Shown here: positions 6,131-63,341 of the stretch, one piece after another
How positions within the stretch are numbered: the first letter of the stretch is position 1
Layout of the letters: each line of letters starts with the position of its first letter
Origin: an uncultured Bacilli bacterium
GTDB lineage: Bacteria; Bacillota_I; Bacilli_A; RF39; UBA660
Assembly: GCA_934131005.1 (NCBI GenBank)
Contig: CAKOYV010000001.1
Location: 79,868-143,867 of the forward strand
DNA: 64,000 nt
Direction of reading: 5' to 3'
Translations under genes and position numbers: made by a program
Notes under the pieces: generated by a model
The model's input: only the letters and a program-made list of their open reading frames with translations
The model's database searches: none
What the model was told of the DNA's origin: nothing

Positions 6131-6994
6131 ATGTTTAAGCATATCTTTACCAACAATCCAGATATCCTAAAAAAATTCTTAATTGATGTTCTAAAACTAG
6201 ATATCAACCCTAACCTAGCTACTATCATTATCGAAAATAACGAACTTACTAAATCTAGGGAAAAAGAATATCAAAAGAACGTTGATATCTATGTTTCTAT
6301 TAATAATAACTTAAGAATTGATATTGAAGTAAACTCTGAAAAATTTAGCTCTATTAAAGCAAGAAATGTCTTATATTTAAATAAAATTGCTATTGATACA
6401 ACTGAATCAGGCTTTACTTATCAAAAAATGAACAAACAATATTTCTACCAACTAAACTTAAATGCTCATAAATCTGATAAATATTTAGACGAAGAATACC
6501 TACTCGTCTCTACAAATAAACACCAAATCTTACTAGATAATTATAAAATCATTTGCAAATCTCTTGATTATTACAAAGAACTTTATTATAATCAAGGTAA
6601 GAATTCAAGCAAAGATGTAATATGGTTATCTTTACTTGGAGCAAATAATTTTAATGAATTAGAGGAGATGGCAAGTTTAGTTATGGATGAAAATGAGAAA
6701 AACAAGTTTGTAAGTGAATGCAAAGATTCTAGTAAAAACACTAAATGGTTATCTGAATGGGGAACAGAATACTTTGCCGAAATGGTGAAACAAAACGTTA
6801 TCGAAGATGCTAAACAAGAAGGATTGCAAGAAGGATTACAAGAAGGATTAGAAAAAGGAATTAATCAAACAAAAACAGAAATGGTAAAAAAGTTATTAGA
6901 GCAAAAAGTATCTTATGAAATTATCGCTACCTCTGCATCAATTTCTGTTAAAGATGTAAAAAAGATAGAAAAATCCATACAAACTGGAGATTAA
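6131..6994 (+). CDS. Rpn/YhgA-like PD-(D/E)XK nuclease-family putative transposase (TIGR01784-like)
   Basis: N-terminus FKHIFTNNPDILKKFLIDVL and C-terminal QEGLQEGLQEGLEKG repeat are typical of this family. A strong SD (AAAGGAGG at 6066-6073) sits far upstream of the ATG with the frame open from 6077, so the true start may be a non-ATG codon near 6080. Confidence 0.6.
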   Translation: MFKHIFTNNPDILKKFLIDVLKLDINPNLATIIIENNELTKSREKEYQKNVDIYVSINNNLRIDIEVNSEKFSSIKARNVLYLNKIAIDTTESGFTYQKMNKQYFYQLNLNAHKSDKYLDEEYLLVSTNKHQILLDNYKIICKSLDYYKELYYNQGKNSSKDVIWLSLLGANNFNELEEMASLVMDENEKNKFVSECKDSSKNTKWLSEWGTEYFAEMVKQNVIEDAKQEGLQEGLQEGLEKGINQTKTEMVKKLLEQKVSYEIIATSASISVKDVKKIEKSIQTGD

Positions 6995-17690: not shown

Positions 17691-19665
17691 TCAAGATTTA
17701 ACAATAATATTACTACTACTAACTCCCGTAAAATTCTTATCAAGTATCCAATTCTTCTCAACTTCAGACTTAACATAAATAGTAGGTGTTTTTTTAGTTT
17801 TTATAAAATCATTATATGAATTAACTGTATTAAAATCAAAACCTGTTAAATCTAAAACTAAATTATCACTTTCATACCCTGTTCCACTAAACATATATGT
17901 TACATCAGTAACATTTGAAGTATCAAACTTATCATTCAATTTTAAAGAGAAATTTTCACTATTAAATCCTGTTTGGAAAAACATCCATCGCATTTTTGTG
18001 ACATTAGAAGTATCAAATTTATCACCTAAATCAAAAGTAAAATTACGACTAGAATAACCAACTTCCTTAAACATATACTCCATATTTGTAACATTAGAGG
18101 TATCAAATTTATCTCCCAAATCAAGTGTAAAATTAGAAGAATTTTTCCCAACATTTGCAAACATATTAGCCATATTTTTTACATTTGAAGTATTAAACTT
18201 ATCTCCTAAATTTAGTTGAAAAACCTTACTATTAGTACCACAGCCGCTAAACATCCCCCACATATCAGTGACATTAGATGTATCAAACTTACTTCCTAAA
18301 TCTAGAGAAAAAACTTCACTATTAGTACCACAACCATTAAAAAAATAAAACATATTTATCACATTATGTGTATCAAATTTATCTCCCAAATTAAGAGTAA
18401 AATTTTTAGCATTATTCCCTGTTCCAGCAAACATTCTCTCCATATTTGTTACACTAGATGTATCAAATCTATCACCCAAATCTAAAGTAAATACATCACT
18501 TACATTGCCAGTCGACCAAAACATCATATCCATATTTTTTACATTTTTAGTATTAAATTTATCACCTAAATCCAAAGTAAAAACAGAATCATTCTTACCA
18601 GTATTATAAAACATACCATTCATATAAATAACATTTCTTGTATCAAACTTATTACCTAGATTAAGAACAAAAACTGAACTACTACTTCCTAATTCTCTAA
18701 ACATATCTCTCATAGTTGTAGTTTGAATTGTATTTAAATTATCAAAAGATATACTATCTACCTTTGTCATATTTTGAAAAAATTTAGATAAATCTTTAGC
18801 ATATATTTCCTTCTTACTTCCTATATATAAATCATAATATCCATCACTACTATTATTATTAAGCCATGCTACTATACTATTATCCCCTAACTCTGATGCA
18901 TCCCACTGTACAACAGCATTACTTGTATCTATATAATCAACAAATGAAACATTCTTAATCTTTTCTCTATATTCATCACTTCTAAAAGTATCAGCACTTA
19001 TATTTTTCATATAATTAAACTCTCCAACCGTAGAAGTTACACCCGTTCCATTTGATGAAGAGAAATCAATCGTTGCATTATATTTTCCTGTATCTGGTTG
19101 ATTTTTATCTACTTCATCTATCCAAATAACCATATAATAAGTCTTTGATGCTCCCTTTCTCAAAGTTAAATCACTATCAAATCTAGCATCATCTAAACTA
19201 GCATAATGACTACTATACTTACCATAAGTATTTTTATCTTGAATAAGTCGCCATTTCAAGTTTGGCATTTTATCTATATTTCCAAAAGTTATAGTACCAT
19301 TTATTTTAACAGTAGCTGTCCCCGTATTAGTTATTTTAATAGAGTAAACTTGACAAACCGTATTATTATTATCATCAACACAATTATAATTACTAGAAAT
19401 GGCCGTTGCTAAGCCTTTTTCTAATTGAGGTACTAAATACTCTTCATTATTTGGATGTTGATTAACAACCTCTAAAGATAAATCAGCCTCTCCAGCAGTA
19501 CCGGCAATACTATTATTACTAGCTGTTAAGGCATAATAAGCATACGTTCCACCAGTTATCAACAACGCATAACAAAATATCCCTATAATTATTAAGCTAA
19601 CTCTCTTTAGTTTAAGACTTTTGACCCCCCCCCGAATTAACTTTTAGTTTATAATCATTCATCAT
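17691..19665 (-). CDS. Surface protein: SipW-type signal peptide + TasA-like domain + DUF285 repeats; annotated ATG (19665) is frameshifted relative to the body by the G9 tract
   Basis: About nine roughly 22-aa repeats LxLGDKFDTSNVTxMxxMF (DUF285-type). N-terminus GGTYAYYALTASNN...CVDDNNNTVCQVYSIKITN parallels the tandem paralogs at 22889-27800. GAGGT-N6-ATG ATG AAT GAT TAT AAA CTA AAA GTT AAT TC-G9-TCAAAAGTC; the signal-peptide frame begins after the tract. Confidence 0.6.
19625..19633. repeat. Homopolymer C9 (G9 on coding strand) in codons 11-14 of the DUF285 gene
   Basis: With G9 the ATG frame terminates after 17 codons (MMNDYKLKVNSGGGQKS*); G8 would fuse the ATG to the signal peptide and full ORF. 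Confidence 0.9.
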
Positions 19666-21929: not shown

Positions 21930-22871
21930 ATGTTCAAATATACTTTAGATAATAAAAGATATCACACCCTAAACTATCACGTTAAAACCAAGTATAACTG
22001 TAAAGTTGTTAAAGTAAGCATCAATGCAGGTTTCTCTTGCCCCAATATAGATGGACGCGTAGGATATGGTGGTTGCATTTACTGTTCAAAATCCGGCAGT
22101 GGCGAATTTGGTGGAAATGTCACTAAACCACTACCAGAACAATTTAACGATATCAAAAATAAAATTAGTAAAAAATGGCCAAACAGCAAATACATAGCTT
22201 ATTTCCAGGCTCATACAAACACCTACGCCCCCGTTAGCGTACTAAAAGAAAAGTACGAAAGTGTTCTAAAACTAAAAGATGTAATTGGCATTGCTATAGC
22301 AACAAGATGCGATGCTATCAGTGATGAATGCCTAGATTATTTAACAGAACTAAACAAAAAGACTAATCTCACAATTGAACTAGGCCTTCAAACCATTCAC
22401 CCAAAAACTTCAAAATTAATAAATAGATGCCATGATTTAAAACAATTTGAATCTATGTACTATAAATTAAAAGAAAGAAATATTGAAATTGTAGTTCACA
22501 TCATCAACGGCCTTCCCTACGAAAATAAAAAAATGATGCTCGAAACTGCCAAATATCTAAACAAATTAAAAGTAGATGGTATTAAAATTCATATGCTAAA
22601 CATTACCAAAAACACAGCCTTAGAAAAATTATACGAAAAAGAAAAATTCCATATTTTAACCAAAGAAGAATACATAGATATTACCATTTGCCAACTAGAA
22701 TTACTCAATCCCAAAATTGTAATCCATCGCATAACCTCTGATCCTGACCCAGAACAATTAATTGCTCCATCTTGGCTTCTTAAAAAGTTTTGTCTTCTAA
22801 ACGATATTGATAAAGAAATGAAAAAAAGAGACACCTATCAAGGAATATCTCTTAAAAATACTGATAACTAA
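21930..22871 (+). CDS. Radical SAM protein, TIGR01212 (YhcC-like) family
   Basis: CPNIDGRVGYGGCIYC cysteine motif and family-typical length. Confidence 0.75.
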   Translation: MFKYTLDNKRYHTLNYHVKTKYNCKVVKVSINAGFSCPNIDGRVGYGGCIYCSKSGSGEFGGNVTKPLPEQFNDIKNKISKKWPNSKYIAYFQAHTNTYAPVSVLKEKYESVLKLKDVIGIAIATRCDAISDECLDYLTELNKKTNLTIELGLQTIHPKTSKLINRCHDLKQFESMYYKLKERNIEIVVHIINGLPYENKKMMLETAKYLNKLKVDGIKIHMLNITKNTALEKLYEKEKFHILTKEEYIDITICQLELLNPKIVIHRITSDPDPEQLIAPSWLLKKFCLLNDIDKEMKKRDTYQGISLKNTDN

Positions 22872-22888
22872 AAATCAGTTTTTTTATT

Positions 22889-23623
22889 TTAATCAAATGT
22901 TGCTTTAATTTCATTACCCTCAGCCGTTACAAACGTAGCTTCTCCATTAAATACATGTTCCATTCCCTGCATATAATCTTGAGAAGTACCATCATCATAA
23001 ATCCATATCATAACATAAAAATCTCTACTAGTTGCCACTTCTAAACCACTCTTATCTGCACCACCAATTTGTTCATTAGAAACAAACAAACAATCATAAT
23101 CATCTTTATGATTAAAACCACCTTCATTACCATTTCTAGAACCAGTCTTAATCACTGCTCTCTCATCAAAACTATCATCCTTAAAATCGTCTGTCGTATA
23201 CTTAGTTGTAAATATTTCCTTATCTTCCGATACTTTTTTAGGATAAACTCTAGTAAATCTAGCCTCTACGCCATCCTTTGTCTCAAAAGTTATATAACCA
23301 TCAACAAAAAACACATCATCTTCGCCACCACTAACAGTAATTTTATATATTTGACATCCAGCATTGTTATTATCATCTAAACACAACTGTTCAGATGCAT
23401 GTGGGGCTTCACTATTTTTCATTGGAACTAAACCATTTATTATATCAGCCATTGTTACCCTTGAAATAGCCATACTAAAACTAGTTGTTTCACTTCGTCC
23501 TCTAACAGTATTTCCATCTTGACTACTAGCTGCAAAATAAGCAAATGTAGCCCCTATTATTATAATTGACAAAACCATACAACCAACAAACAAATAAAAC
23601 ATTTTCTTATTACTATTATTCAT
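22889..23623 (-). CDS. TasA/camelysin-like secreted protein with SipW-type signal peptide (divergent, short member)
   Basis: IIIGATFAYFAAS after a K-rich n-region and hydrophobic core; CLDDNNNAGCQIYKITV; C-terminal ...ATFD. Confidence 0.55.
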   Translation of the reverse strand: MNNSNKKMFYLFVGCMVLSIIIIGATFAYFAASSQDGNTVRGRSETTSFSMAISRVTMADIINGLVPMKNSEAPHASEQLCLDDNNNAGCQIYKITVSGGEDDVFFVDGYITFETKDGVEARFTRVYPKKVSEDKEIFTTKYTTDDFKDDSFDERAVIKTGSRNGNEGGFNHKDDYDCLFVSNEQIGGADKSGLEVATSRDFYVMIWIYDDGTSQDYMQGMEHVFNGEATFVTAEGNEIKATFD

Positions 23624-23644
23624 AGCATCACCCTATTCTAAAAA

Positions 23645-23673
23645 CATTATAACAAATAGGCACTAAAAAAACA
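23645..23673 (-). promoter_or_regulatory. Sigma-A-type promoter of the 22889-23623 gene
   Basis: TTGTTT-N17-TATAAT on the minus strand, followed by AGGGTGAT-ATG. Confidence 0.5.
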
Positions 23674-23705
23674 ATACAAGACTTAATTTTTGTATTGTTT
23701 TTAAA

Positions 23706-24665
23706 TTATTGACCAACTCTTTGATCAGATGGAACAGTAGTATATCCACCAAATGTAGCACTTACCTCTCCACCTTGTGCAGAATTAAATGTTACAGTAC
23801 CACTAAAGAAATTATTAGCAGCTGTACTACTACCAGTAGTATCAATAGTTTGATTAGTACCAGTCTCATGTAACCATACAACTATATATAGAATACTAAC
23901 ATTTTTATTAGTAGTATCTCCTTGTGGCTTCAAATATTGATTATATACTAAAGCATCTGCCATATCTTTAGCTCTATCATACTTACCACTAACATGCTTA
24001 CTAGTTCTAATATAATTAGTACTAATAATTTGTCTACTATTACCAGCAAAAGCAGCATTATCTGTAACAGTATTCAAATATCCACCAGCAGTTGAATAAA
24101 TTTTAGTCTTACTCATACCAGTAGCATCTGCTTTATTATCCAAATTAGCAAAAGTTTTTTCTGTATCAGCATTCAAAGCCGTCGTACCACCCGTAGAATA
24201 AGTATTACCAGTTTTAAATACTTGTGCCCATCTCATAGTAGTCTTAGCCGTTGTATCATCTGTTGAAGTACCTGTCTCAGTATTATTAGTCAAAGTAACA
24301 TAACCATCCAAGAACATACTAGCACTTGATTCGTTAGTTAAAGTTATTTTATATATCTGACAAACTGAGTTTCCATTATCATCAACACACGCTTTAGAAT
24401 GTTTAACTGCTTGTTCAACCATTGTATTAGACATTGGTATTAAACCACCATTAGTCTGATCAGTACTCTCATCTCTTTCAACTTTCAATCCAAAGTTAAT
24501 TGTAGCAGCATTACCCGTTAAAGTCGTTGTATTAGTTTGAGTTGCCATAAAGTATGCAAATGTTGCTCCTACAACTGCAACAACTAACGTAAGAATAGCT
24601 ACAACTATATATATTATTCCTTTTCTATCTCTTCCATTATCACTCATTGCTATCCTCCTTACCAT
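23706..24665 (-). CDS. TasA/camelysin-like secreted protein, SipW-type signal peptide (tandem paralog 2)
   Basis: VGATFAYFMATQTN; INFGLKVER; CVDDNGNSVCQIYKITLTN; conserved C-terminus LYIVVWLHETGTNQTI...TVTFNSAQGGEVSATFGGYTTVPSDQ. Confidence 0.6.
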   Translation of the reverse strand: MVRRIAMSDNGRDRKGIIYIVVAILTLVVAVVGATFAYFMATQTNTTTLTGNAATINFGLKVERDESTDQTNGGLIPMSNTMVEQAVKHSKACVDDNGNSVCQIYKITLTNESSASMFLDGYVTLTNNTETGTSTDDTTAKTTMRWAQVFKTGNTYSTGGTTALNADTEKTFANLDNKADATGMSKTKIYSTAGGYLNTVTDNAAFAGNSRQIISTNYIRTSKHVSGKYDRAKDMADALVYNQYLKPQGDTTNKNVSILYIVVWLHETGTNQTIDTTGSSTAANNFFSGTVTFNSAQGGEVSATFGGYTTVPSDQRVGQ

Positions 24666-24671
24666 GTATTA

Positions 24672-24719
24672 AGTATACCAAAAAAGCAAGAAAAAAACAA
24701 CACAAAATTTGCATTGTTT
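24672..24719 (-). promoter_or_regulatory. Terminator hairpin plus embedded promoter between paralogs (same layout at 25691-25738 and 26733-26761)
   Basis: Hairpin AAACAA(C/T)ACAAA-ATTT-G(C/T)ATTGTTT with a U-run on the minus strand. The 3' arm TTGTTT serves as the -35, then N17, then TATACT, then SD AAGGAGG-ATG. Confidence 0.5.
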
Positions 24720-24727
24720 AAATCAAT

Positions 24728-25663
24728 TTACTGTTGATCAGATGGAACAGTAGTATAACCACTAAATGTAGCACTTACCTCTCCACCTTGTGCTGAATTA
24801 AACGTTACAGTACCACTAAAGAAATTCTTAGCAGCCTCTTGATTACCAGTAGTATCAATAGTTTGATTAGTACCAGTCTCATGTAACCACACAACTATAT
24901 ATAATTCACTTTTATTCTTACCATCTTGGGTATTAGTAGATTTTAAATATTGATCATACACTAAAGCATCAGCTAAATCACTCGTTCTATCATACTTACT
25001 ATCCGGCTTATGTTGACTAGTCCTAATATAATTAGTACTAATTATATCTCTAGAATTACCAGCAAAATTAGCTGTATCTGTAACAGTATTTAAATAGCCA
25101 TCACCACTTGCATAAATCATATTCTTACTCATTCCTGTAAGATCACTCTTATTATCCAAAGAATTTATTGTCTTCTCACTATCAGCATTCAAAGTTGTTG
25201 TACCACCAGTAGAATAAGTATTACCACTTTTAAATACTTGTGCCCATCTCATAGTAGTACCAGCACTAGCTAAATCAGTAGATTTACCAGTCTCAGTTTT
25301 ACTACTCAAAGTAACGTAACCATCCAAGAACATACTAGCACTTGATTGATTAGTTAAAGTAATTTTATATATTTGACAAACTGAGTTTCCATTATCATCC
25401 TTACAAGGCGTTTCTGCTGTTACAGCTTTCTCAACCATTGTATTAGACATTGGAATTAAACCACCATTAGTCTGATCAGTAGTCTCAGCTCTCTCAACAT
25501 CTAATCCAAAATTAATTGATGCCGCATTACCTGTAATTGTATCATCATTAGTTTGTGTTGCTGTAAAATATGCAAAAGTAGCTCCTATTATAGCAACTAT
25601 TAATGTAGCAATTCCAATCACACCATAAAACAAACCTTTTCCGTTATAATGATTACCATCCAT
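24728..25663 (-). CDS. TasA/camelysin-like secreted protein (tandem paralog 3)
   Basis: Same conserved N- and C-terminal blocks; variable Ser/Thr-rich core. Confidence 0.6.
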   Translation of the reverse strand: MDGNHYNGKGLFYGVIGIATLIVAIIGATFAYFTATQTNDDTITGNAASINFGLDVERAETTDQTNGGLIPMSNTMVEKAVTAETPCKDDNGNSVCQIYKITLTNQSSASMFLDGYVTLSSKTETGKSTDLASAGTTMRWAQVFKSGNTYSTGGTTTLNADSEKTINSLDNKSDLTGMSKNMIYASGDGYLNTVTDTANFAGNSRDIISTNYIRTSQHKPDSKYDRTSDLADALVYDQYLKSTNTQDGKNKSELYIVVWLHETGTNQTIDTTGNQEAAKNFFSGTVTFNSAQGGEVSATFSGYTTVPSDQQ

Positions 25664-25746
25664 TCTCTCATCCTCCTCTATTATGAAATAAGTATATCAA
25701 AAAAGGAAGAAAAAAACAATACAAAATTTGTATTGTTTAAATTAAT

Positions 25747-26706
25747 TTATTGTTGGTCAGATGGAACAGTAGTGTATCCATTGAATGTAGCACTAACCTC
25801 TCCGCCTTGTGCAGAGTTAAATGTTACAGTACCAGTAAAGAAATTCTTGGCAGCTTCTGCATTACCAGTAGTATCAATAGTTTGGTTAGTTCCTGTCTCA
25901 TGTAACCATACAACTATATATAATTCATTTTTATTCTTACCATCTTGAGTACTAGCAGATTTTAAATATTGGTCATATACTAAAGCATCTGATAAATCTC
26001 CTGTTCTAGTATATTTATTATTTCCTTCTCCAGCTTTTACATGCTTACTAGTTCTAATATAGTTCTTATTTATAACTTCTCTTTTATTTCCAGCAAAAGT
26101 AGTATTTTCACTATCAGTAACTGCACTTAAATATTCTCCACCAGCTGAGTTATAAATATTTTTCTTATTCATACCAGTAGTATCAGTAGCATTATCAATA
26201 TTAGCAATTTGAACTTCTGTATCAGCATTCAAAGTTGTTGTACCACCAGTAGAATAAGTTTCACCACTTTTAAATACTTGTGCCCATCTCATAGTAGTAT
26301 TAGTAGCAGAAGTATCATCAGTAGAAGTTCCTGTAGCAGTTGCATTTGTCAAAGTTACATAACCATCCAAGAACATACTAGCAGTTGATTCATTAGTCAA
26401 AGTAATTTTATATATTTGACAAACTGAGTTTCCGTTATCATCCTTACAAGGAGTTGTAGCTGTTACAGCTTTCTCAACCATTGTATTAGACATTGGAATT
26501 AAACCACCATTAGTCTGGTCAGTAGTTTCAGCTCTTTCTACTTTTAAACCAAAGTTAATTGATGCAGCATTACCAGTAATAGTATTATCATTAGTTTGTG
26601 TAGCTGTAAAGTATGCAAAAGTAGCACCAATTATAGCAACAACTAATGTAGCAACACCAATTACACCATAAAATATTCCTCTTCCTTTCTTATTTTCATT
26701 ATTCAT
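25747..26706 (-). CDS. TasA/camelysin-like secreted protein (tandem paralog 4)
   Basis: Same blocks; variable core. Confidence 0.6.
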   Translation of the reverse strand: MNNENKKGRGIFYGVIGVATLVVAIIGATFAYFTATQTNDNTITGNAASINFGLKVERAETTDQTNGGLIPMSNTMVEKAVTATTPCKDDNGNSVCQIYKITLTNESTASMFLDGYVTLTNATATGTSTDDTSATNTTMRWAQVFKSGETYSTGGTTTLNADTEVQIANIDNATDTTGMNKKNIYNSAGGEYLSAVTDSENTTFAGNKREVINKNYIRTSKHVKAGEGNNKYTRTGDLSDALVYDQYLKSASTQDGKNKNELYIVVWLHETGTNQTIDTTGNAEAAKNFFTGTVTFNSAQGGEVSATFNGYTTVPSDQQ

Positions 26707-26852
26707 TATTATCTATCCTCCTTACTGTAACAAGTATAACAAATTTAATTTTAAAAGACAATATCTTTTTCACATTTTAAAAAAAAATTTATCTAAACAT
26801 CAAAAAAGAATACATATTTCTATGTACACTTTTTATCATAAACTAAATATTA

Positions 26853-27800
26853 TTATTGTGTTCTTGAAGTATCAGATGGAACAGTAGTATAACCACTAAA
26901 TGTAGCACTAACCTCTCCACCTTGCGCAGAGTTAAATGTTACAGTACCAGTGAAGAAGCCATCAGTTTGTCCACCTTCAGCAATTGTTTGGTTAGTACCA
27001 GTTTCATGTAACCATACAACTATATATAAATCATTAGTATTAGCATTATCAGCAGAACCCTTTGCTTTCAAATATTGATCATATACTAAAGCATCTGATA
27101 AATCTTTAGTTCTATCATATGAAGCAGCAGTATGTTTGCTAGTTCTAATATAGTTTTTATTGATTATAGTTCTATTATTACCAGCAAAAGCAGCCTCACC
27201 AGTAACAGCACTCAAATACCCATCACCAGTTCCATAAATCTTATCTTTACTCATACCAGTACCATCAGCTTTATTATCAATATTATCAATTTGAACTTCT
27301 GTATCAGCCTTTAATGTTGTTGTACCACCAGTAGAATACTTACTACCGTCATAAAATACTTGTGCCCATCTCATAGTAGTAGGAGCAGAAGTATCATCAG
27401 TAGACGTACCAGTTGCACCAGCAACTGTATCTTTTAAAGTTACATAACCATCCAAGAACATACTAGCAGTTGATTCATTAGTCAAAGTAATTTTATATAT
27501 TTGACAAACTGAGTTTCCGTTATCATCCTTACAAGGCGTTTCTGCTGTTACAGCTTTCTCAACCATTGTATTAGACATCGGAATTAAACCACCATTAGTC
27601 TGATCAGTAGTTTCTGCTCTAGCTACCTTTAAACCAAAGTTAATTGATGCAGCATTACCAGTAATTGTATCCTCATTAGTTTGTGTTGCAGTAAAGTATG
27701 CAAAAGTAGCACCAATAATAGCAACAACTAATGTAGCAACACCAATTACACCATAAAATACTCCTCTTCCTTTCATTTTATTATCATTACTCATTATCAT
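26853..27800 (-). CDS. TasA/camelysin-like secreted protein (tandem paralog 5, promoter-proximal)
   Basis: Same blocks; variable core. Confidence 0.6.
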   Translation of the reverse strand: MIMSNDNKMKGRGVFYGVIGVATLVVAIIGATFAYFTATQTNEDTITGNAASINFGLKVARAETTDQTNGGLIPMSNTMVEKAVTAETPCKDDNGNSVCQIYKITLTNESTASMFLDGYVTLKDTVAGATGTSTDDTSAPTTMRWAQVFYDGSKYSTGGTTTLKADTEVQIDNIDNKADGTGMSKDKIYGTGDGYLSAVTGEAAFAGNNRTIINKNYIRTSKHTAASYDRTKDLSDALVYDQYLKAKGSADNANTNDLYIVVWLHETGTNQTIAEGGQTDGFFTGTVTFNSAQGGEVSATFSGYTTVPSDTSRTQ

Positions 27801-27817
27801 CTATCCTCCTTACTATA

Positions 27818-27850
27818 CTAAGTATACCAAAACATTTTCTAAAAAGCAAC
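27818..27850 (-). promoter_or_regulatory. Promoter of the first tandem paralog
   Basis: TTGCTT-N17-TATACT on the minus strand, 20 nt upstream of AAGGAGGATAG-ATG. Confidence 0.5.
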
Positions 27851-27857
27851 ATCTTTT

Positions 27858-29174
27858 TTAACGTTTTTTGTTAACATAAAGATTATTTAGATTAGACGAA
27901 CTAATCAATTCATAATGAGAAGAAATATAAGAAACAATTTCCTTACTAGTCTGCCCTATTTCTTTACTAACTTCTTCATTATTAACAACAAATACACAAT
28001 TATTATTCAAACAATAATCAGAAATCTCTTTAATATATTTATAACTTCCCCCATAGCCCATATTACCATCATTAATCAAATCATATTTGGAAATCTTAAG
28101 TCCTAACTCTAACTTAGCCATATAAGCCCTAGAATCAAGCAAAAAAACACGATAACCAGAATATTCTTTATAAACATTCTTAACTAAAGAAAAATATTCC
28201 CTCATATAATTAGGCATCCTCTTATAAAGAAATTTACTATTACCATAATCATATATACCATCATATTGATTTGATTTAGGACTAATAACCGAAACAAACG
28301 ATCCCAAAAAGCCAAAAAAAACAATAATGCTAATTAAAAAAGCACCACAAAAATTAACTTTCTTATAAAGATAATAAATAACGGGACTAACCCCCAAAAC
28401 AAAATGTGAACTATCAACAATCGGAAAATCAATAATTTGAAATAATAATATATATATAAGTTGTCTATCTTTAGTCTTTATAAACATAAATAACAACCAA
28501 CAACAAATAAAAATCTCTACTACAGTTAAATATGAAAGCCCAACATTATTCTTACTACCAAAATCAAACAGTCCTAAAAAACAATAATCAATAAACTTAT
28601 ATAATCCTTCATAACTAACTAAATATAAGAGTAATACAAAAACACTAAGCATAATCAAAGCAAACATCCTCTTACGCCTCTTAGCATAATAAAGAAAAGG
28701 AATAGCCATCATAATAAATGTCTGTTTAGTTAAAAACATCAACACAATTATAATCCCAATAATTATCTCATTATTATCTCTATCTAAAAAATATAATAAC
28801 AAAAACATCAACAAAACTAAAAAAGTATTATAGCCATTATAAGGATAAATAAGCATAACCATATAAACAAAAATAGCCTTATACCCAATCATTTTATAAC
28901 AAACTAAAAAAATCATTAACAAAATTAAACTAACAAATATATGATACGCTATAAAATTATCACCAATCACTCCCATAAAAGCCCCCAAAATAATAGGAAA
29001 AAGTGGCGTAATAACCATATTAAAATCTAAATAAGGCCTAAGTCCATGCAATATATTATAACCAAATCCATAATTCCAAACACTATCTAAATTATAAGGT
29101 GCCAAATAATATAAATAAAAACAAGTACTTACTAGTAGTAAAAAAGAAAATATAATGCTTAAATATTTTCTCAT
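27858..29174 (-). CDS. Polytopic membrane protein (about 10 TM) with a roughly 130-aa C-terminal soluble domain; possible GT-C-type glycosyltransferase
   Basis: Hydrophobic profile; first loop YNLDSVWNYGFGYNILHGLRPYLDF; no decisive motif. Confidence 0.35.
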   Translation of the reverse strand: MRKYLSIIFSFLLLVSTCFYLYYLAPYNLDSVWNYGFGYNILHGLRPYLDFNMVITPLFPIILGAFMGVIGDNFIAYHIFVSLILLMIFLVCYKMIGYKAIFVYMVMLIYPYNGYNTFLVLLMFLLLYFLDRDNNEIIIGIIIVLMFLTKQTFIMMAIPFLYYAKRRKRMFALIMLSVFVLLLYLVSYEGLYKFIDYCFLGLFDFGSKNNVGLSYLTVVEIFICCWLLFMFIKTKDRQLIYILLFQIIDFPIVDSSHFVLGVSPVIYYLYKKVNFCGAFLISIIVFFGFLGSFVSVISPKSNQYDGIYDYGNSKFLYKRMPNYMREYFSLVKNVYKEYSGYRVFLLDSRAYMAKLELGLKISKYDLINDGNMGYGGSYKYIKEISDYCLNNNCVFVVNNEEVSKEIGQTSKEIVSYISSHYELISSSNLNNLYVNKKR

Positions 29175-29176
29175 AA

Positions 29177-29884
29177 CTATCTCTTCTTAACCAAAAATTC
29201 TACTTTAGAAAAAAGTTCATCATTAATACTATTAATTGACCTAATCTCATCATTAGGAGCGCAATTAATAACATCAAAATTATAAATATCAGCAAGTTCA
29301 AAATAAGTACGCTCTGCATTCATTAAATGACGACTATTAGCCTCATGTTGATCAATACTATCATGACGATTTTTCTTAAGTTCACTAGCAACCTTATAAG
29401 GAACATATAAAAATATAACTTTATCAGGCTTAGGAATCTCTAAAATATCAAACTCTAGCTTTTCTATTTTATTAAAATACTTCTCCCTCTCACTCTTATC
29501 ATCTATCTTACCACCTTGATGCGCTAAATTAGAATAAATATATCTATCCAAAATAACATTAACACCACTATCTAACAAACTAATTATTTTATCTTTATTA
29601 TATCTTCTATCAGCAGCATAATACAAAGAAGAAGTAAGATAATCAACACAACTAGCCCCTTCCTTAAATAAACCTCTAACACCATCTTTAAATAAATAAT
29701 CACAATACTCAGGCTTTCCCAAATAACAAGTAGCAACAATCATTCCCGTAGGAGTATCATACATAGGAAAAGACAATCTCTTAGCCTTTATTCCTAATTT
29801 ATTTAATCTATCCTCTAACATTAAAGTCTGTGTTTCCTTACCAGAACAATCTGTACCTTCAACTACAATTAATTTACCTCTCAT
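29177..29884 (-). CDS. tmk: Thymidylate kinase
   Basis: P-loop IVVEGTDCSGKETQ, DRY motif, lid region. Confidence 0.85.
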   Translation of the reverse strand: MRGKLIVVEGTDCSGKETQTLMLEDRLNKLGIKAKRLSFPMYDTPTGMIVATCYLGKPEYCDYLFKDGVRGLFKEGASCVDYLTSSLYYAADRRYNKDKIISLLDSGVNVILDRYIYSNLAHQGGKIDDKSEREKYFNKIEKLEFDILEIPKPDKVIFLYVPYKVASELKKNRHDSIDQHEANSRHLMNAERTYFELADIYNFDVINCAPNDEIRSINSINDELFSKVEFLVKKR

Positions 29885-30029
29885 AACTATACTATCCCTC
29901 TCTATTACCCCCTATTAATTCTACTTCTTTATGATAACATACTTTTAATTATTATACCAAAAAATTAACCAAGAAGATAATTGTCAGAAAAAGAAAAAAA
30001 TGATATACTGATAAGCATGGAGGATAATT

Positions 30030-30752
30030 ATGAGAAGTATATTATATTATTTTTTAATTTTTTTTATCTATTCTATTCTAGGGTGGATAATGGAATCATT
30101 CTACGTTAGTATTAGGCAAAAAAAGTTCGTAGACCGAGGCTTTCTAATAGGTCCCTACTGCCCAATCTATGGCTTGGGATCAACAATAATGATTCTCTAC
30201 CTAGAACAATATAAAGATAACATCCTAACCGTCTTTATATTAGGATGCGTAATCTGTTCCACCCTAGAATACCTAACAAGCTATTTTATGGAAAAACTCT
30301 TTAAAGCTAGATGGTGGGATTATAGCAAGCAAAAATTCAACCTAAATGGCCGTATCTGTGGAAGAAATTCTATTCTCTTTGGCCTAGGTGGAGTGCTTAT
30401 TATCTATGTAATTCAGCCCATAGTAGATCCATTCATAAAAGAAGTAGAAGGATCATGGCTAATTTTTGTTGCTATCCTCTTCATTATATGTTTTATAGCA
30501 GACACCATAGTATCTTGTAATATTGTAAACAAATTAAAGAAAAATCTAAGCAATATCGAAATAAAAAAAGACTCAACTCAAGAGTTAAAAAATTTAGTAA
30601 CTGAAGTTATTAATAATAATCTTAAAACTAAACAGTTAAATATTTTCCAAAAAAGAATTATCACAGCCTTCCCCAACTTCGATTTTCATAAATTTGTCAA
30701 AATAAATGACCGAAAAATTGAAAAGCTCAAGAAAATATTTAGAAAAAACTAA
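30030..30752 (+). CDS. DUF1113 / putative ABC-transporter type IV membrane protein
   Basis: ILGWIMESFYVSI...RGFLIGPYCPIYGLGS signature and multiple TM segments. Confidence 0.45.
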   Translation: MRSILYYFLIFFIYSILGWIMESFYVSIRQKKFVDRGFLIGPYCPIYGLGSTIMILYLEQYKDNILTVFILGCVICSTLEYLTSYFMEKLFKARWWDYSKQKFNLNGRICGRNSILFGLGGVLIIYVIQPIVDPFIKEVEGSWLIFVAILFIICFIADTIVSCNIVNKLKKNLSNIEIKKDSTQELKNLVTEVINNNLKTKQLNIFQKRIITAFPNFDFHKFVKINDRKIEKLKKIFRKN

Positions 30753-45066: not shown

Positions 45067-45993
45067 CTATAAATCAATTAATTTCATATAATTACTAGGC
45101 ATTCCCATCTTATCAAGAATTTTCTCTATTGGAATTGAATTAACAATACCATCTAATTTTTCTATCTCATACTCAACTTCTTTCATCATCATCCGAAATT
45201 CATCTTCCCGAAGTAAATATTTAAGGATAATAAAGACCGAAAACATATCATTTTTTCCATATATATATTCATTATCCATTCTAGGTATTTCTAACATCTC
45301 ATGATAAGGCGTATTAATAATTGACTTCTCTGTTCTATGTTCATAAACAATATCTTCATGAGCACATAAATTTCTATAATTAGATAAAATTGGTAAAAAG
45401 CTTTCCATATAATCAGTATTTATTCCAAAGATATCAGCAATTGCAATTTGATCTTCTGGTTTTAAAATAGAATAAAACTCACAAACAATCCCAAAAGACA
45501 AAACTTTAACTAAAACCCATAATGGAATATAACCATAATTATTAATATAATGCATCGTAGCCATATGATGAGCTCCATTAACTCTAACTTGTCTCTTAAT
45601 TTTCTCAATAACATCTTTAACTCTTCTAGCCTTAAGTCTATCATTGGTAAAATTCTTAGGATTTAAATAATCTTTATCACGATATCCATACTTCTTAGAT
45701 AATTGATAAGATATAATAGACTTTAAATTATTTTCAATAATCATTAAATTCTTAAACAAAATATTTCTAATATATCTATCAAATAAGAATATAGAATAAA
45801 GTTCTCTAAAAGTAGAACCTATTATAAAATTCCTATCTGCATAAGAATTCATAAGTAATCCTCTATATCCATTGATAAAAAAATAATTCTCTCGAAGAAG
45901 TATCTCTTTAGTTTGCTCTTCATCTTCTATTATTAAGCCTTTATCTTTAAGGATAGATAATTGCTCATCTAAAGTTTTAAATAGCTTCTCCAC
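45067..45993 (-). CDS. Abi_2 (AbiD/AbiF-like) abortive-infection protein
   Basis: LSFGIVCEFYSIL ... RNLCAHEDIVYEH matches the Abi_2 signature RNxxAHHxR. Confidence 0.6.
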   Translation of the reverse strand: MEKLFKTLDEQLSILKDKGLIIEDEEQTKEILLRENYFFINGYRGLLMNSYADRNFIIGSTFRELYSIFLFDRYIRNILFKNLMIIENNLKSIISYQLSKKYGYRDKDYLNPKNFTNDRLKARRVKDVIEKIKRQVRVNGAHHMATMHYINNYGYIPLWVLVKVLSFGIVCEFYSILKPEDQIAIADIFGINTDYMESFLPILSNYRNLCAHEDIVYEHRTEKSIINTPYHEMLEIPRMDNEYIYGKNDMFSVFIILKYLLREDEFRMMMKEVEYEIEKLDGIVNSIPIEKILDKMGMPSNYMKLIDL

Positions 45994-56534: not shown

Positions 56535-57077
56535 TTAATAATTTTCACTCTTAATCTCAAAGAAACTTTGAGGATGAGAACATATAGGACAAACCTTAGG
56601 AGCTTCCTTACCAATAACCACATGGCCACAATTACGACAAATCCAAATCTTTTCTCCATCCTTAGAAAATACTAAACCATTCTCAACATTATCAAGTAAT
56701 TTTCTATATCTTTCTTCATGCTCTTTTTCTATTTTAGCAACTCCCTCAAAAAGAAATGCTAATCTATCAAATCCTTCTTCACGAGCTGTCTTAGCAAACT
56801 CTGCATACATATCAGTCCATTCATAATTTTCTCCCTCAGCAGCTGCTAGTAAATTACCCATAGTAGAAGGAATTTCTCCACCATTTAATTCTTTAAACCA
56901 TAACTTAGCATGTTCTTTTTCATTATTAGCAGTCTCTTCAAAAATAGCTGCTATTTGCTCATAGCCATCCTTTTTAGCTTTTGAAGCAAAATAAGTATAC
57001 TTATTTCTAGCTTGACTCTCACCAGCAAAGGCAGTCATTAAATTTTGATACGTTTTACTATCTTTAAGTTCCATCAA
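56535..57077 (-). CDS. rbr: Rubrerythrin
   Basis: Di-iron ferritin-like EKEH motifs plus C-terminal rubredoxin CxxC...CxxC. Confidence 0.85.
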
Positions 57078-57142
57078 TATTACCTCTTTTCTTAATTAAA
57101 ATACTCCTTAATTATAACAAATAAGATTTAAAAAAGCAACCA

Positions 57143-57706
57143 TCATTGCTTTTTATCTTCAGCTTTTTCATCTGTTTTTATATAATCATCTCGAACACTA
57201 TTATCTATCTCATTAGAAACTTCATCATCATAACTAACATCATCTATTACATCCCATGGATCTTCATCTTCTTCAACAGCAACTTTAACCTTTGTATCTC
57301 CAACTATTTCTACTCCTAATTCTTTTTCAATTTCAATCGAAATACTCTTACCATCTTCATGTGCTTTAATACAATTAGGTTGTTTCAAACTTCTAACTAT
57401 TATATCTTTACTAGAAGTTGAACTAGATTCCCTCTGCCTTACCATCACAGCTTCTGAATATTTAATTTTCTTTGTAATAACAGTAGTCTTAGTATCATTA
57501 TTATAAGAATACCAAATATTAACATCAAAACTACCATCTATTATAATCTTTCCTCCAACATCACTTCCTTTAAATTTATGATTAATAACCCAACATCCTA
57601 AAACAGTACTAGGCTCCTGCTCTGTATCCAAAACATATGTATTTTTATAATATTTTTTACCTTTACCAATTATCGCTTTCGTAACTATTTCTTTATACGC
57701 AGCCAA
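57143..57706 (-). CDS. cotE: Spore coat morphogenetic protein CotE
   Basis: AAYKEIVTKAIIGKGKK...PSTVLGCWVINHKF...VNIWYSYNNDTKT aligns residue-for-residue with the B. subtilis CotE N-terminus, and the tail is acidic. Likely TTG start at 57706 after AGAGGGGTGA. A sigma-K-like -10 (CATAAATTA) lies upstream. Confidence 0.75.
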   Translation of the reverse strand: MAAYKEIVTKAIIGKGKKYYKNTYVLDTEQEPSTVLGCWVINHKFKGSDVGGKIIIDGSFDVNIWYSYNNDTKTTVITKKIKYSEAVMVRQRESSSTSSKDIIVRSLKQPNCIKAHEDGKSISIEIEKELGVEIVGDTKVKVAVEEDEDPWDVIDDVSYDDEVSNEIDNSVRDDYIKTDEKAEDKKQ

Positions 57707-57896
57707 GATAATCACCCCTCTAATTTAATTTATGATGATCATCCCAAAAAAGTACTATAAAAATTATATATATACACTTTAACAAAAAAATATAGATATA
57801 AAAGCATAAACCAAAATTTTAAATTATGCTAATATATCTATTACTCTTAATTTATATACTATCAAGCTATTAATTATAAAATCTATACTAAAGCCC

Positions 57897-62831: not shown

Positions 62832-63341
62832 TTAATATAAATTATTCATTTTTTTTTGCTTTTTATTTTCTTCAATGTAAACTTGACTTATATATTCTAT
62901 TGCTAAATCACTATACATATTAATATTTGTATTATAATATTTAAACTGATAACAATATTCTTGGTTAGTTTTAATATTTTTTCTTTTGCAAATATCATGA
63001 AATTTATTTGATGTAAATCCATGGTTTGGTCCTAACGCCAATTCTATCGTTTCACTTATCTTATTTACTATTTCTTTTGTTTTATATGGATGAGATTTGT
63101 CTATATCTTTTGGAACATTAATTATTTTTGCACTTTCGCTACCATCTTTTACGATAGTATATTTTAAATCTGCATCTGTTTCTTTTTTTGTTGATACTAA
63201 TTTTAATGTTTGTACTAAGTTTTCATCTGTATCTAATTCATTTTTTAATTTATCAAATAGTATTAGATTTGCTGGATTGAATACTAATGATGAAACATCT
63301 TGATTATCTCCAGGATTTACGAGTGCTATATATGGTGTCAC
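62832..63341 (-). CDS. Hypothetical protein
   Basis: 169-aa ORF. Confidence 0.3.
   Translation of the reverse strand: MTPYIALVNPGDNQDVSSLVFNPANLILFDKLKNELDTDENLVQTLKLVSTKKETDADLKYTIVKDGSESAKIINVPKDIDKSHPYKTKEIVNKISETIELALGPNHGFTSNKFHDICKRKNIKTNQEYCYQFKYYNTNINMYSDLAIEYISQVYIEENKKQKKMNNLY

Follow-up and report, generated by a model that had tools for sequence, protein, structure and literature searches.

How are the members of a tandem array of related genes transcribed, as one message or each from a promoter of its own? The question is raised by a locus in a 64,000-nt window (positions 79,868-143,867 of contig CAKOYV010000001.1, assembly GCA_934131005.1; 28% GC) from an uncultured gut Bacilli bacterium (RF39; UBA660). 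Here five co-oriented tandem paralogs, g1 to g5, all lie on the minus strand, separated by short intergenic spacers of 80-146 nt. A preliminary description of the sequence had proposed that every paralog carries its own promoter, built into the preceding terminator, in a module with an AT-only hairpin that is repeated four times. What it had observed proved largely real and is partly confirmed here, though it lies on the minus strand and needs correction. Its interpretation is partly supported: the promoter and terminator of each paralog hold up, while "four times" and "AT-only" do not. Each of the five paralogs looks like a transcription unit of its own.

Results

Four of the paralogs are long (about 311-319 aa) and g5 is a divergent protein of 244 aa. 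On the minus strand, g1 (313 aa) occupies 26853..27794; translation starts at its second ATG (27794, not 27800), as indicated by the Shine-Dalgarno spacing and by an identical 313-aa gene call in the related locus L004. The g2 ORF (25747..26706, 319 aa) is 82% identical to g1. The g3 ORF (24728..25663, 311 aa) has the same sequence as P0007, which is present on 72 contigs. The true start of g4 (23706..24647, 313 aa) is at 24647, an ATG at 24665 lying upstream of the Shine-Dalgarno site. The last gene, g5 (22889..23623), is 34-38% identical to the other paralogs and has the GATFAYF signal motif in common with the long ones; it had been left undescribed, though one of the three embedded modules considered below would drive it. 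The repeat period is 1013-1115 bp, in keeping with the tandem unit of about 1040 bp estimated earlier. A short paralog also follows the long gene or genes in most related loci.

No Pfam family was found for the paralogs, and a Pfam domain is absent from all 120 g2 homologues listed of the 1944 detected at E<=0.001. The product, so far uncharacterised, is predicted to be a beta-sandwich protein that is secreted or located at the surface and has a signal motif of SipW-type appearance. In the structural model, the beta-sandwich is preceded by a disordered N-terminal extension that could serve as a donor strand. The top Foldseek match in the PDB is the TasA fibre 8aur, with TM-scores of only 0.25-0.32. 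GATFAYF aligns with GGTWAAF of TasA at the cleavage region, at an hhalign probability of only 0.2%, and four of the five paralogs give sub-threshold scores with the TIGR04088 model of SipW-cognate signal peptides (14.3-18.6 bits against a cut-off of 19). Like the SipW-dependent matrix fibre subunits of the TasA/CalY type (tapA-sipW-tasA; PMC9674648, PMC10151520), the paralogs form a gene pair of major subunit and minor paralog. Beyond the signal motif, no sequence homology to TasA/CalY-type proteins was found, nor did a Pfam scan of window ORFs reveal a sipW gene or a signal-peptidase family.

All five paralogs are preceded by the pattern TTGnnn-N17-TGn-TATA(C/A)T and a Shine-Dalgarno site. 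The candidate promoter P1, upstream of g1, reads TTGCTT-N17-(TGG)TATACT (27821..27849, minus strand), just as first described. It starts 8 nt past the stop codon of an upstream membrane-protein gene, its predicted +1 is the A at about 27814, and no convincing hairpin lies upstream of it (fold -2.9 kcal/mol, z -0.4). The remaining promoters, also on the minus strand, are P2 upstream of g2, TTGTCT-N17-(TGT)TATACT (26733..26761); P3, TTGTTT-N17-(TGA)TATACT (25691..25719); P4, TTGTTT-N17-(TGG)TATACT (24672..24700); and P5, for g5, TTGTTT-N17-(TGT)TATAAT (23646..23674). In every case exactly 17 nt separate the two boxes. The preliminary description had placed AAGGAGG and an ATG after the -10 box, and a GGAGG-type Shine-Dalgarno sequence and a start codon do follow all five sites, with 22-27 nt from the end of the -10 box to the start codon. 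What it had overlooked is an invariant TG at -15/-14, the extended -10 element, in five of five promoters. The boxes TGnTATACT or TGnTATAAT match the -10 consensus at five or six of six positions, and both this match and the TG recur in every related locus.

The -35 hexamers (TTGCTT, TTGTCT or TTGTTT) match TTGACA at three or four of six positions, with only TTG conserved, which is why a generic scanner picked up just one of these promoters. Sigma-A promoters of the extended -10 (TGn) type are known from B. subtilis and other low-GC Gram-positive bacteria, and a poor -35 match is tolerable in such a promoter. The promoters described here resemble them in having TG one base before a near-consensus -10 box, a 17-nt spacer, a -35 element reduced to TTG and A/T-rich flanks; they differ in that the non-consensus C of TATACT is strictly kept in all long-paralog promoters of all lineages examined. 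Across the five aligned intergenic regions, which are otherwise 51% identical, TTG, the 17-nt spacer, TG and TATA-T are invariant.

A hairpin followed by a U-run lies after each gene, on the minus strand. T1, after g1 (26803..26834), has the form AAAAAG.GUACAUA-GAAA-UAUGUAU.CUUUUU (region -12.9 kcal/mol, z -2.6). Its sequence is unrelated to T2-T4, and strain L005 carries a variant whose changes preserve pairing. T2, after g2 (25707..25738), consists of AAACAAUACAA-AUU-UUGUAUUGUUU and a U-tract (-8.7 kcal/mol, z -5.0), and none of 200 shuffles folded equally well. T3, after g3 (24688..24719), is AAACAAUGCAA-AUU-UUGUGUUGUUU with its U-tract (-9.8 kcal/mol), and T4, after g4 (23662..23702), is an inverted repeat forming a 13-bp hairpin, AAAAACAAUACAA-(10-nt loop)-UUGUAUUGUUUUU, again with a U-tract (-10.4 kcal/mol, z -3.0). 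The stems measure 10-13 bp and are followed by T7 runs (-8.7 to -12.9 kcal/mol, z -2.6 to -5.0). T5 (22853..22886; -8.6 kcal/mol, z -3.0, 0/200 shuffles folding as well) closes the array between g5 and a convergent radical-SAM gene.

The reported order of hairpin and U-run between paralogs was thus found again, 8-12 nt past the stops of g2, g3 and g4. The hairpins are not AT-only: each embedded one has two C-G pairs, and the g3-g4 hairpin, compared with T2, contains two G-U wobbles as well. Their stems are nonetheless not the G+C-rich stems of the usual intrinsic terminator, having two G-C pairs each (GC 0.16-0.24), and a generic terminator scan called none of them because it required at least three. 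Hairpin and U-run elements in the window, 19 of them intergenic and 11 within the ORFs that cover most of it, range from -5.2 to -14.5 kcal/mol and from 0.11 to 0.43 in GC, and the cluster hairpins fall inside both ranges. Since the other candidate terminators are similarly AU-rich, the expectation of a G+C-rich stem is probably organism-dependent. Compared with terminators of E. coli or B. subtilis, the three embedded stems (-8.7 to -10.4 kcal/mol) are weak and AU-rich. Polymerase is therefore likely to read through them to some extent, and inefficient termination could leave a substantial amount of polycistronic RNA.

The promoter is not built into the preceding terminator throughout. The -35 element lies inside the terminator 3' arm at three junctions only, g2-g3, g3-g4 and g4-g5, where all six of its bases are paired in the arms of T2, T3 and T4, respectively, and where TTGTTT stands exactly 17 nt from the -10 box as had been claimed. 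The embedded TTGTTT module therefore occurs three times rather than four. P1 and the g1-g2 junction are different: the latter spans 146 nt, and the -35 of P2 starts 41 nt after the unrelated T1 stem, separate from it. Within the window the embedded arrangement is found at this locus only, in 3 of 19 candidate terminators.

We compared 12 loci from some ten lineages, whose proteins are 46-55% identical to those of the window. Every long paralog in them has TTGnnn-17-TGnTATACT 23-29 nt before its start, which strongly supports, by comparison, the earlier claim that each paralog would have its own promoter; the short paralogs have TTG(C/T)TT-17-TGn-TAnAAT, and hairpin and U-tract elements again lie between the genes. 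In the single-copy loci L003 and L013 the same cassette of promoter, gene and terminator stands alone. This comparison supports cassette-like transcription well. The junction from long to short paralog is embedded in seven of nine lineages (the window species, L001, L002, L007, L010, L014 and L015). The exceptions are L009, with the -35 at the end of the terminator U-tract, and L012, with the -35 starting about 17 nt after it. Stem sequences differ among the seven lineages with an embedded -35 while complementarity is kept; a compensatory change replaces G-C by A-T at the fourth position of the -35, and the pairs nearest the loop co-vary. Read from the opposite strand, several of the G-U wobbles would turn into A-C mismatches, which indicates that the sense RNA is the strand that folds.

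Between long paralogs, the embedded form is confined to this species. In the g2-g3 and g3-g4 junctions, the upstream half is 66-67% identical to the g4-g5 junction versus 51-55% to the regions upstream of g1 and g2, while the downstream half is closer to the promoters of g1 and g2 (73-80% versus 61-64%). Duplication of a long gene by recombination within the promoter spacer could have produced such hybrid junctions, joining a g5-type hairpin and -35 element to a long gene's -10 box and leader, although this model is based on short alignments and modest identity differences. The upstream halves of g2-g3 and g3-g4 are 89% identical to each other; the two modules are duplicates and thus not independent evidence.

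Discussion

Taken as a whole, the locus is probably best explained as a series of self-contained cassettes, with terminator and promoter overlapping at three of the junctions. Each cassette would begin with an extended -10 promoter of the housekeeping-sigma (sigma-A/sigma-70) type, TTGnnn-17-TGnTATA(C/A)T, and its predicted +1, an A, would lie seven nt downstream of the -10 box. A leader of about 15-20 nt with a strong Shine-Dalgarno sequence would then lead into the ORF, and an AU-rich intrinsic terminator would end the unit. At the embedded junctions the same DNA would be used twice. In the RNA, ...UUGUAUUGUUUUUUU would supply the terminator of the upstream gene with its 3' arm and U-tract; in the DNA, TTGTTT would be the -35 element of the next promoter and the T-run the start of its 17-nt spacer. 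If the promoters fire and the hairpins terminate in vivo, as we infer, transcripts would be mostly monocistronic with some read-through.

Other readings of the locus have to be weighed against these cassettes. It is possible, though rather unlikely, that the genes form one polycistronic operon, transcribed from P1 or from the upstream tmk and membrane-protein genes, in which the internal boxes are inactive copied relics and the hairpins, just as improbably, serve as RNA processing or 3'-stabilising elements or as weak attenuators. Co-oriented genes with spacers of 80-146 nt would suit an operon, as would embedded stems of -8.7 to -10.4 kcal/mol, -35 elements matching the consensus at three or four of six positions, and g2-g3 and g3-g4 junctions that are copies of one another. 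Relics, however, would decay, yet lineages with proteins about 50% identical all keep TTG, the 17 nt, TG and TATACT unchanged amid intergenic sequence that differs; the hybrid junctions have retained exactly 17 nt. An operon also does not account for the same promoter before the single-copy genes of L003 and L013, or for hairpins that directly follow the stops with a U-tract always next.

Far less probable is that the palindromes overlapping the -35 elements are DNA operators for a dimeric repressor of the paralogs rather than RNA terminators. AAACAATACAAATTTTGTATTGTTT is a near-perfect palindrome over the -35, a classic operator position, but between lineages only complementarity is conserved, not the stem sequence. 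Moreover, the loop varies from 3 to 10 nt, several G-U wobbles break the dyad symmetry of the DNA and pair in the sense RNA only, a U-tract always follows, the element always lies 8-12 nt past a stop codon, and no such palindrome is present at P1 or at P2, with its unrelated T1. That the motifs are chance matches, on the ground that DNA of 28% GC should contain TTG...TATA-like strings and A/T palindromes anyway, is scarcely credible. A loose sigma-70 scan does find no excess in the region (42 sites versus 46 expected), and TGNTATAMT alone is mildly enriched (28 versus 17). The full pattern TTG-N17(TGn)-TATAMT, in contrast, has eight matches in the 64 kb versus 0.46 expected (about 17-fold), a number reached in none of 100 shuffles. 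All eight are intergenic, correctly oriented and 20-33 nt upstream of an ORF start, exclusively upstream of genes, and five belong to the paralog cluster. This pattern enrichment, together with significant hairpin z-scores and conservation across genomes with covariation, already contradicts the chance reading.

Returning to the cassettes, tufB-secE of Salmonella is an already known case in which a terminator overlaps the promoter that follows and couples neighbouring units, an arrangement called operon concatenation (2019, PMC6735719). There, as here, one unit's terminator physically overlaps the next promoter and has kept doing so over long evolutionary distances; the overlap ties neighbours together in expression and gene order, as it may do in our case. 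By this analogy, the physical overlap argues for coupling rather than independence. The units of tufB-secE are ribosomal and translation operons, whereas those described here are single paralogous genes for a predicted secreted structural protein in a low-GC Firmicute. Unlike in tufB-secE, the whole -35 hexamer is paired in the stem and the U-tract doubles as promoter spacer, and two of the three copies are apparently recent duplication junctions. A polymerase terminating at the U-tract would sit on the next promoter, so that occlusion or re-initiation might couple the neighbours. RNA polymerase that stays on the DNA after intrinsic termination has been described to initiate again (Kang et al. 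2020, PMC6978380; Tenenbaum et al. 2023, PMC10372574), and a terminator adjoining a same-strand promoter, as predicted here, is the geometry that would most favour such recycling. In those in vitro studies, done with E. coli polymerase, terminator and promoter lay tens to about 1000 bp apart, compared with zero or negative distances here.

The arrangement is a tidy, conserved case of something known and not a new mechanism. Between long paralogs, the embedded form looks like a by-product of the mode of duplication, as judged from the junction sequences. The long-to-short junction arrangement, by comparison across lineages, is ancient and maintained by selection.

Results

The array consists of four long tandem paralogs, g1 (26853-27794), g2 (25747-26706), g3 (24728-25663) and g4 (23706-24647), followed by a shorter divergent paralog, g5 (22889-23623); all genes of the 22889-27800 stretch lie on the minus strand. 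The long paralogs are 70-82% identical to one another and share 34-38% identity with g5. The mechanical ORF list overruns the start of g1 by two codons and that of g4 by six, and the starts at 27794 and 24647 were set from the Shine-Dalgarno spacing together with the genes called on a public contig of identical sequence (L004). The repeat period measures 1013-1115 bp, in agreement with the duplicated unit of about 1040 bp proposed in a preliminary description made from the sequence. Directly upstream of the array is a gene for a 438-aa multi-pass membrane protein (27858-29174, minus strand) that has no Pfam or NCBIfam match. The order tmk, membrane protein, paralogs recurs in several related loci, and the membrane protein is a candidate export or modification partner.

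On the coding strand, TTGnnn-N17-TATA(C/A)T precedes each of the five paralogs. The -35 box is TTGCTT for g1, as described previously together with its 17-nt spacer, TTGTCT for g2 and TTGTTT for g3, g4 and g5. The start codon comes 22-27 nt after the -10 box, with a GGAGG-type Shine-Dalgarno site in between. The spacer always ends in TGn, a feature overlooked in the preliminary description, which makes all five promoters of the extended -10 type. When the five intergenic regions are aligned they are 51% identical overall, the invariant columns being TTG, TTTG-TATA-T and a few T's. An A is found exactly 7 nt past the -10 box in all five window promoters, and the very short leader places the Shine-Dalgarno site a few nucleotides from the predicted 5' end (27807-27826, 26719-26738 and the equivalents in the related loci L001-L015).

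A loose sigma-70 consensus scan gave no enrichment in region 22000-30000 (42 matches, 46 expected) and missed four of the five paralog promoters; it reports only that of g2, as TTGTTT and TTGCTT share just three of six bases with TTGACA, below the scanner's minimum of four. Generic scanning was replaced by a specific pattern search with shuffled controls and by our own hairpin plus U-run scan. The pattern TTG-N17(TGn)-TATAMT occurs eight times in the 64 kb, where shuffles expect 0.46 and none of 100 shuffles reaches eight, and its TTGTTT version occurs three times (0.34 expected). All eight extended-pattern matches fall between genes in the right orientation, 20-33 nt 5' of an ORF start, and five of them belong to the paralog cluster.

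Genes g2, g3 and g4 are each followed, 8-12 nt past the stop codon, by a hairpin of 10-13 bp and then U7, with folding energies of -8.7, -9.8 and -10.4 kcal/mol and z-scores of -5.0, -3.0 and -3.0, respectively. All six bases of the next gene's TTGTTT -35 box are paired in the hairpin's 3' arm, and the U-tract supplies the first bases of the 17-nt spacer. These stems had been described as AT-only; they are AU-rich, with two C-G pairs in each and two G-U wobbles in the g3-g4 copy. The 146-nt g1-g2 junction is built differently, with an unrelated hairpin (26803-26834) and a separate TTGTCT promoter that starts 41 nt further on, so the embedded module is present three times and not four, one of the three serving g5. 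The preliminary observation is partly confirmed, and its interpretation, that every paralog carries its own promoter inside the preceding terminator, is partly supported and correct in spirit: a predicted promoter precedes all five genes, and its -35 box lies inside a terminator-like hairpin at three junctions. An Rfam search of 22000-30200 returned a single chance miRNA match (E 0.37), and the g1-g2 spacer accordingly holds no known RNA element.

None of the paralog hairpins was called by a generic terminator scan, which skips them because they have fewer than three G-C pairs. A window-wide scan for perfect hairpins with U-runs gave 19 intergenic and 11 intragenic candidates, although most of the sequence is taken up by ORFs. 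Those between genes span -5.2 to -14.5 kcal/mol at a GC content of 0.11-0.43, and the paralog hairpins are ordinary though weak putative terminators for a 28%-GC genome. Embedding of the -35 box as a genome-wide habit was rejected for the window, since the arrangement was seen at the paralog locus only. In predicted folds of read-through RNA, the U/C-rich promoter spacer UUUUCUUCCUUUUUU pairs with the downstream Shine-Dalgarno region AGAGGAGGA (25664-25713 and 24648-24694, minus strand). Such pairing would mask translation of read-through transcripts; it may simply result from the composition of a pyrimidine run and a purine run.

At E<=0.001, g2 has 1944 homologues; among the 120 listed, no Pfam domain was found and the sole source name was 'hypothetical protein'. 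Both P0007, a protein identical to that of g3, and g5 are present on more than 70 contigs (ENA ERZ27287121 is an example). Related loci were compared from "Bacilli bacterium" metagenome-assembled genomes and from gut metagenomes (goat, Hadza and others), the set comprising the 100%-identical contig, a strain variant (L005) and nine remoter lineages, whose proteins are 46-55% identical to those of the window. The usual gene order is one to four long genes and then one short paralog, and the block is often flanked by tmk and the unannotated multi-pass membrane protein, with a convergent radical-SAM gene on the other side. In some lineages an F1-like ATPase gene cluster adjoins the locus (L007, 7924-12957; L010, 1-700), and in L010 the locus is also close to a small protein that weakly matches the archaeal Class_IIIsignal family (PF04021).

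At every locus, every long gene has TTGnnn-17-TGnTATACT 23-29 nt 5' of its start, followed by the nearly invariant leader TAyAGTAAGGAGGA. The C at position 5 of the non-consensus -10 box TATACT is kept without exception in the long-paralog promoters of all these lineages. Short genes with a readable promoter all have TTG(C/T)TT (or TTGAT[T/A])-17-TGn-TAnAAT. Hairpin and U-tract elements separate the genes in all loci examined, and in the single-copy loci L003 and L013 the same promoter-gene-terminator cassette stands alone. Seven lineages (the window species, L001, L002, L007, L010, L014 and L015) have the -35 box of the long-to-short junction within the 3' arm of the terminator hairpin; in L009 the box falls at the end of the terminator U-tract, and in L012 it begins about 17 nt past it.

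Folds computed for each sequence, with the -35 box as anchor, bear on what these palindromes are. Chance matches in AT-rich DNA are disfavoured, since the long-to-short stems vary in sequence and in loop length (3-10 nt) with their pairing kept. Binding sites for a regulator would also produce palindromes, but operators are disfavoured by covariation and by G-U pairs confined to the sense strand. Position 4 of the -35 box is paired G-C in six lineages but A-T in the window species, which is a compensatory change, loop-proximal pairs co-vary between lineages, and several stem pairs are G-U, which an antisense RNA would show as A-C mismatches and a DNA dyad as asymmetries. Together these features favour a hairpin in the sense-strand RNA, that is, a terminator.

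Pfam and NCBIfam searches with the paralogs gave nothing beyond sub-threshold matches to TIGR04088, the "SipW-cognate signal" model, which scores just under its cut-off. An AlphaFold model from a 51-sequence alignment (pLDDT 78, pTM 0.77) has an N-terminal hydrophobic helix, disordered residues 24-47 and a beta-sandwich. Among PDB structures, Foldseek ranks the TasA fibre first (8aur, E 3.3e-4, TM-scores 0.25-0.32); a sequence profile search of the PDB gave no match even at E 10, and hhalign against B. subtilis TasA aligned an 11-residue cleavage-site/signal motif and nothing else. No sipW or prepilin peptidase gene was found among the window ORFs scanned. By analogy with TasA and TapA (PMC9674648, PMC10151520), a reasonable guess for the product is a secreted fibre subunit of the TasA kind, accompanied by a minor partner. 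The N-terminal hydrophobic segment GRGIFYGVIGVATLVVAIIGATFAYFTA (residues ~8-35 of g1-g3) is almost invariant between these proteins and the long paralogs of L001-L015, at only ~50% identity over the full length. This is unusual for a cleaved signal peptide, and the segment could be retained, or cleaved after the basic 'GRG' in a class III or prepilin-like manner.

The N-terminal 110-160 residues of the paralogs are also common to two DUF285-type surface proteins (17691-19664 and ~7-270, both minus strand; 25-33% identity, E 1e-10 to 1e-14). The shared stretch covers the signal motif and the first part of the beta-sandwich, with GGTYAYY in the DUF285 proteins and GATFAYF in the paralogs, and points to a shared module for export or assembly that has been joined to an adhesin-like repeat region. 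Each DUF285 gene carries a G9 tract at about codon 11-13 (minus strand, 19625-19633 and 240-248) in this 28%-GC genome. In the assembly, the gene at 17691-19664 is out of frame, and one G less would restore a full N-terminus with signal peptide; the gene at the left window edge is in frame. From their sequence, the tracts look like sites of slipped-strand phase variation.

The surroundings, with genes for PriA, PNPase, HtpG, RelA, PBP5 and CotE, are ordinary chromosomal DNA of a low-GC Firmicute that contains peptidoglycan and probably forms spores. The CotE spore-coat gene (57143-57715, minus strand, E 5e-50) indicates that the organism is probably an endospore former; it adjoins a rubrerythrin gene (56535-57077, minus strand) preceded by a strong promoter match (57111-57139), one of the window's eight. 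GC skew is strongly negative throughout the window (-0.17 to -0.52 per 2 kb), GC content is 24-34% and about 90% of the ORFs are on the minus strand, among them genes for an Abi_2 abortive-infection-like protein (45067-45993) and an EC042_2821-like restriction-endonuclease-like domain protein (62832-63341). A PD-(D/E)XK transposase-family protein (6131-6994) is encoded by one of the few plus-strand ORFs.

Discussion

In all the other lineages, and at g1-g2 here, long-to-long junctions keep hairpin and promoter apart, the promoter lying 15-52 nt downstream, and the embedded form at g2-g3 and g3-g4 is found in this species only (the window and its strain variant). In short alignments, the hairpin/-35 halves of these two junctions are 66-67% identical to the g4-g5 junction versus 51-55% to the regions upstream of g1 and g2, and their -10/leader halves are 73-80% identical to long-gene promoters versus 61-64% to that of g5. 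A repeat family (D3) runs from the 3' end of g4 through the hairpin and ends at the -10 box of the g5 promoter. The simplest reading of these alignments is duplication of a long gene through unequal recombination between T-rich stretches inside the promoter spacers, which would leave a hybrid promoter that keeps the 17-nt spacing.

Building on the identity, statistics, structure and conservation of these motifs, we infer that all five genes have working housekeeping-sigma promoters of their own, with predicted +1 A residues at 27814, 26726, 25684, 24665 and 23639. The U-tracts would end most transcripts, and the weak stems point to some read-through. Where terminator and promoter overlap, as they do at three junctions, the polymerase that terminates would sit over the next promoter, so that neighbouring genes may be coupled by transient occlusion or by re-initiation. 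Overlap of a terminator with the following promoter, linking the two units, has been described for Salmonella tufB-secE (PMC6735719). Single-molecule studies show that polymerase which has terminated is able to start again at promoters close by (PMC6978380, PMC10372574). A bolder proposal, which we regard as unlikely, is that selection has shaped the junction for hand-off: a polymerase that lets go of its RNA in the U-tract, being already on the next -35 box and spacer, would re-initiate without leaving the DNA and thereby set the major/minor subunit stoichiometry of an undescribed, abundantly expressed surface filament of uncultured gut Bacilli, whose N-terminal assembly module would also occur in the apparently phase-variable DUF285 adhesin-like proteins.

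The arrangement is neat and evolutionarily maintained, and it belongs to a kind of system that is already known. It offers a natural, deeply conserved case of a terminator hairpin that holds the next -35 box, a test case for models of polymerase recycling and occlusion, and a compact part with two functions that synthetic biology could use. The comparison further provides a clean, comparatively validated definition of promoters and terminators for an uncultured, very AT-rich lineage of gut Bacilli (TTG-17-TGnTATAMT, short leaders, AU-rich terminators), in which generic scanners miss both kinds of element. Finally, it draws attention to a large nameless family of about 1900 homologues, without a Pfam family, which common gut bacteria probably express strongly on their cell surface.
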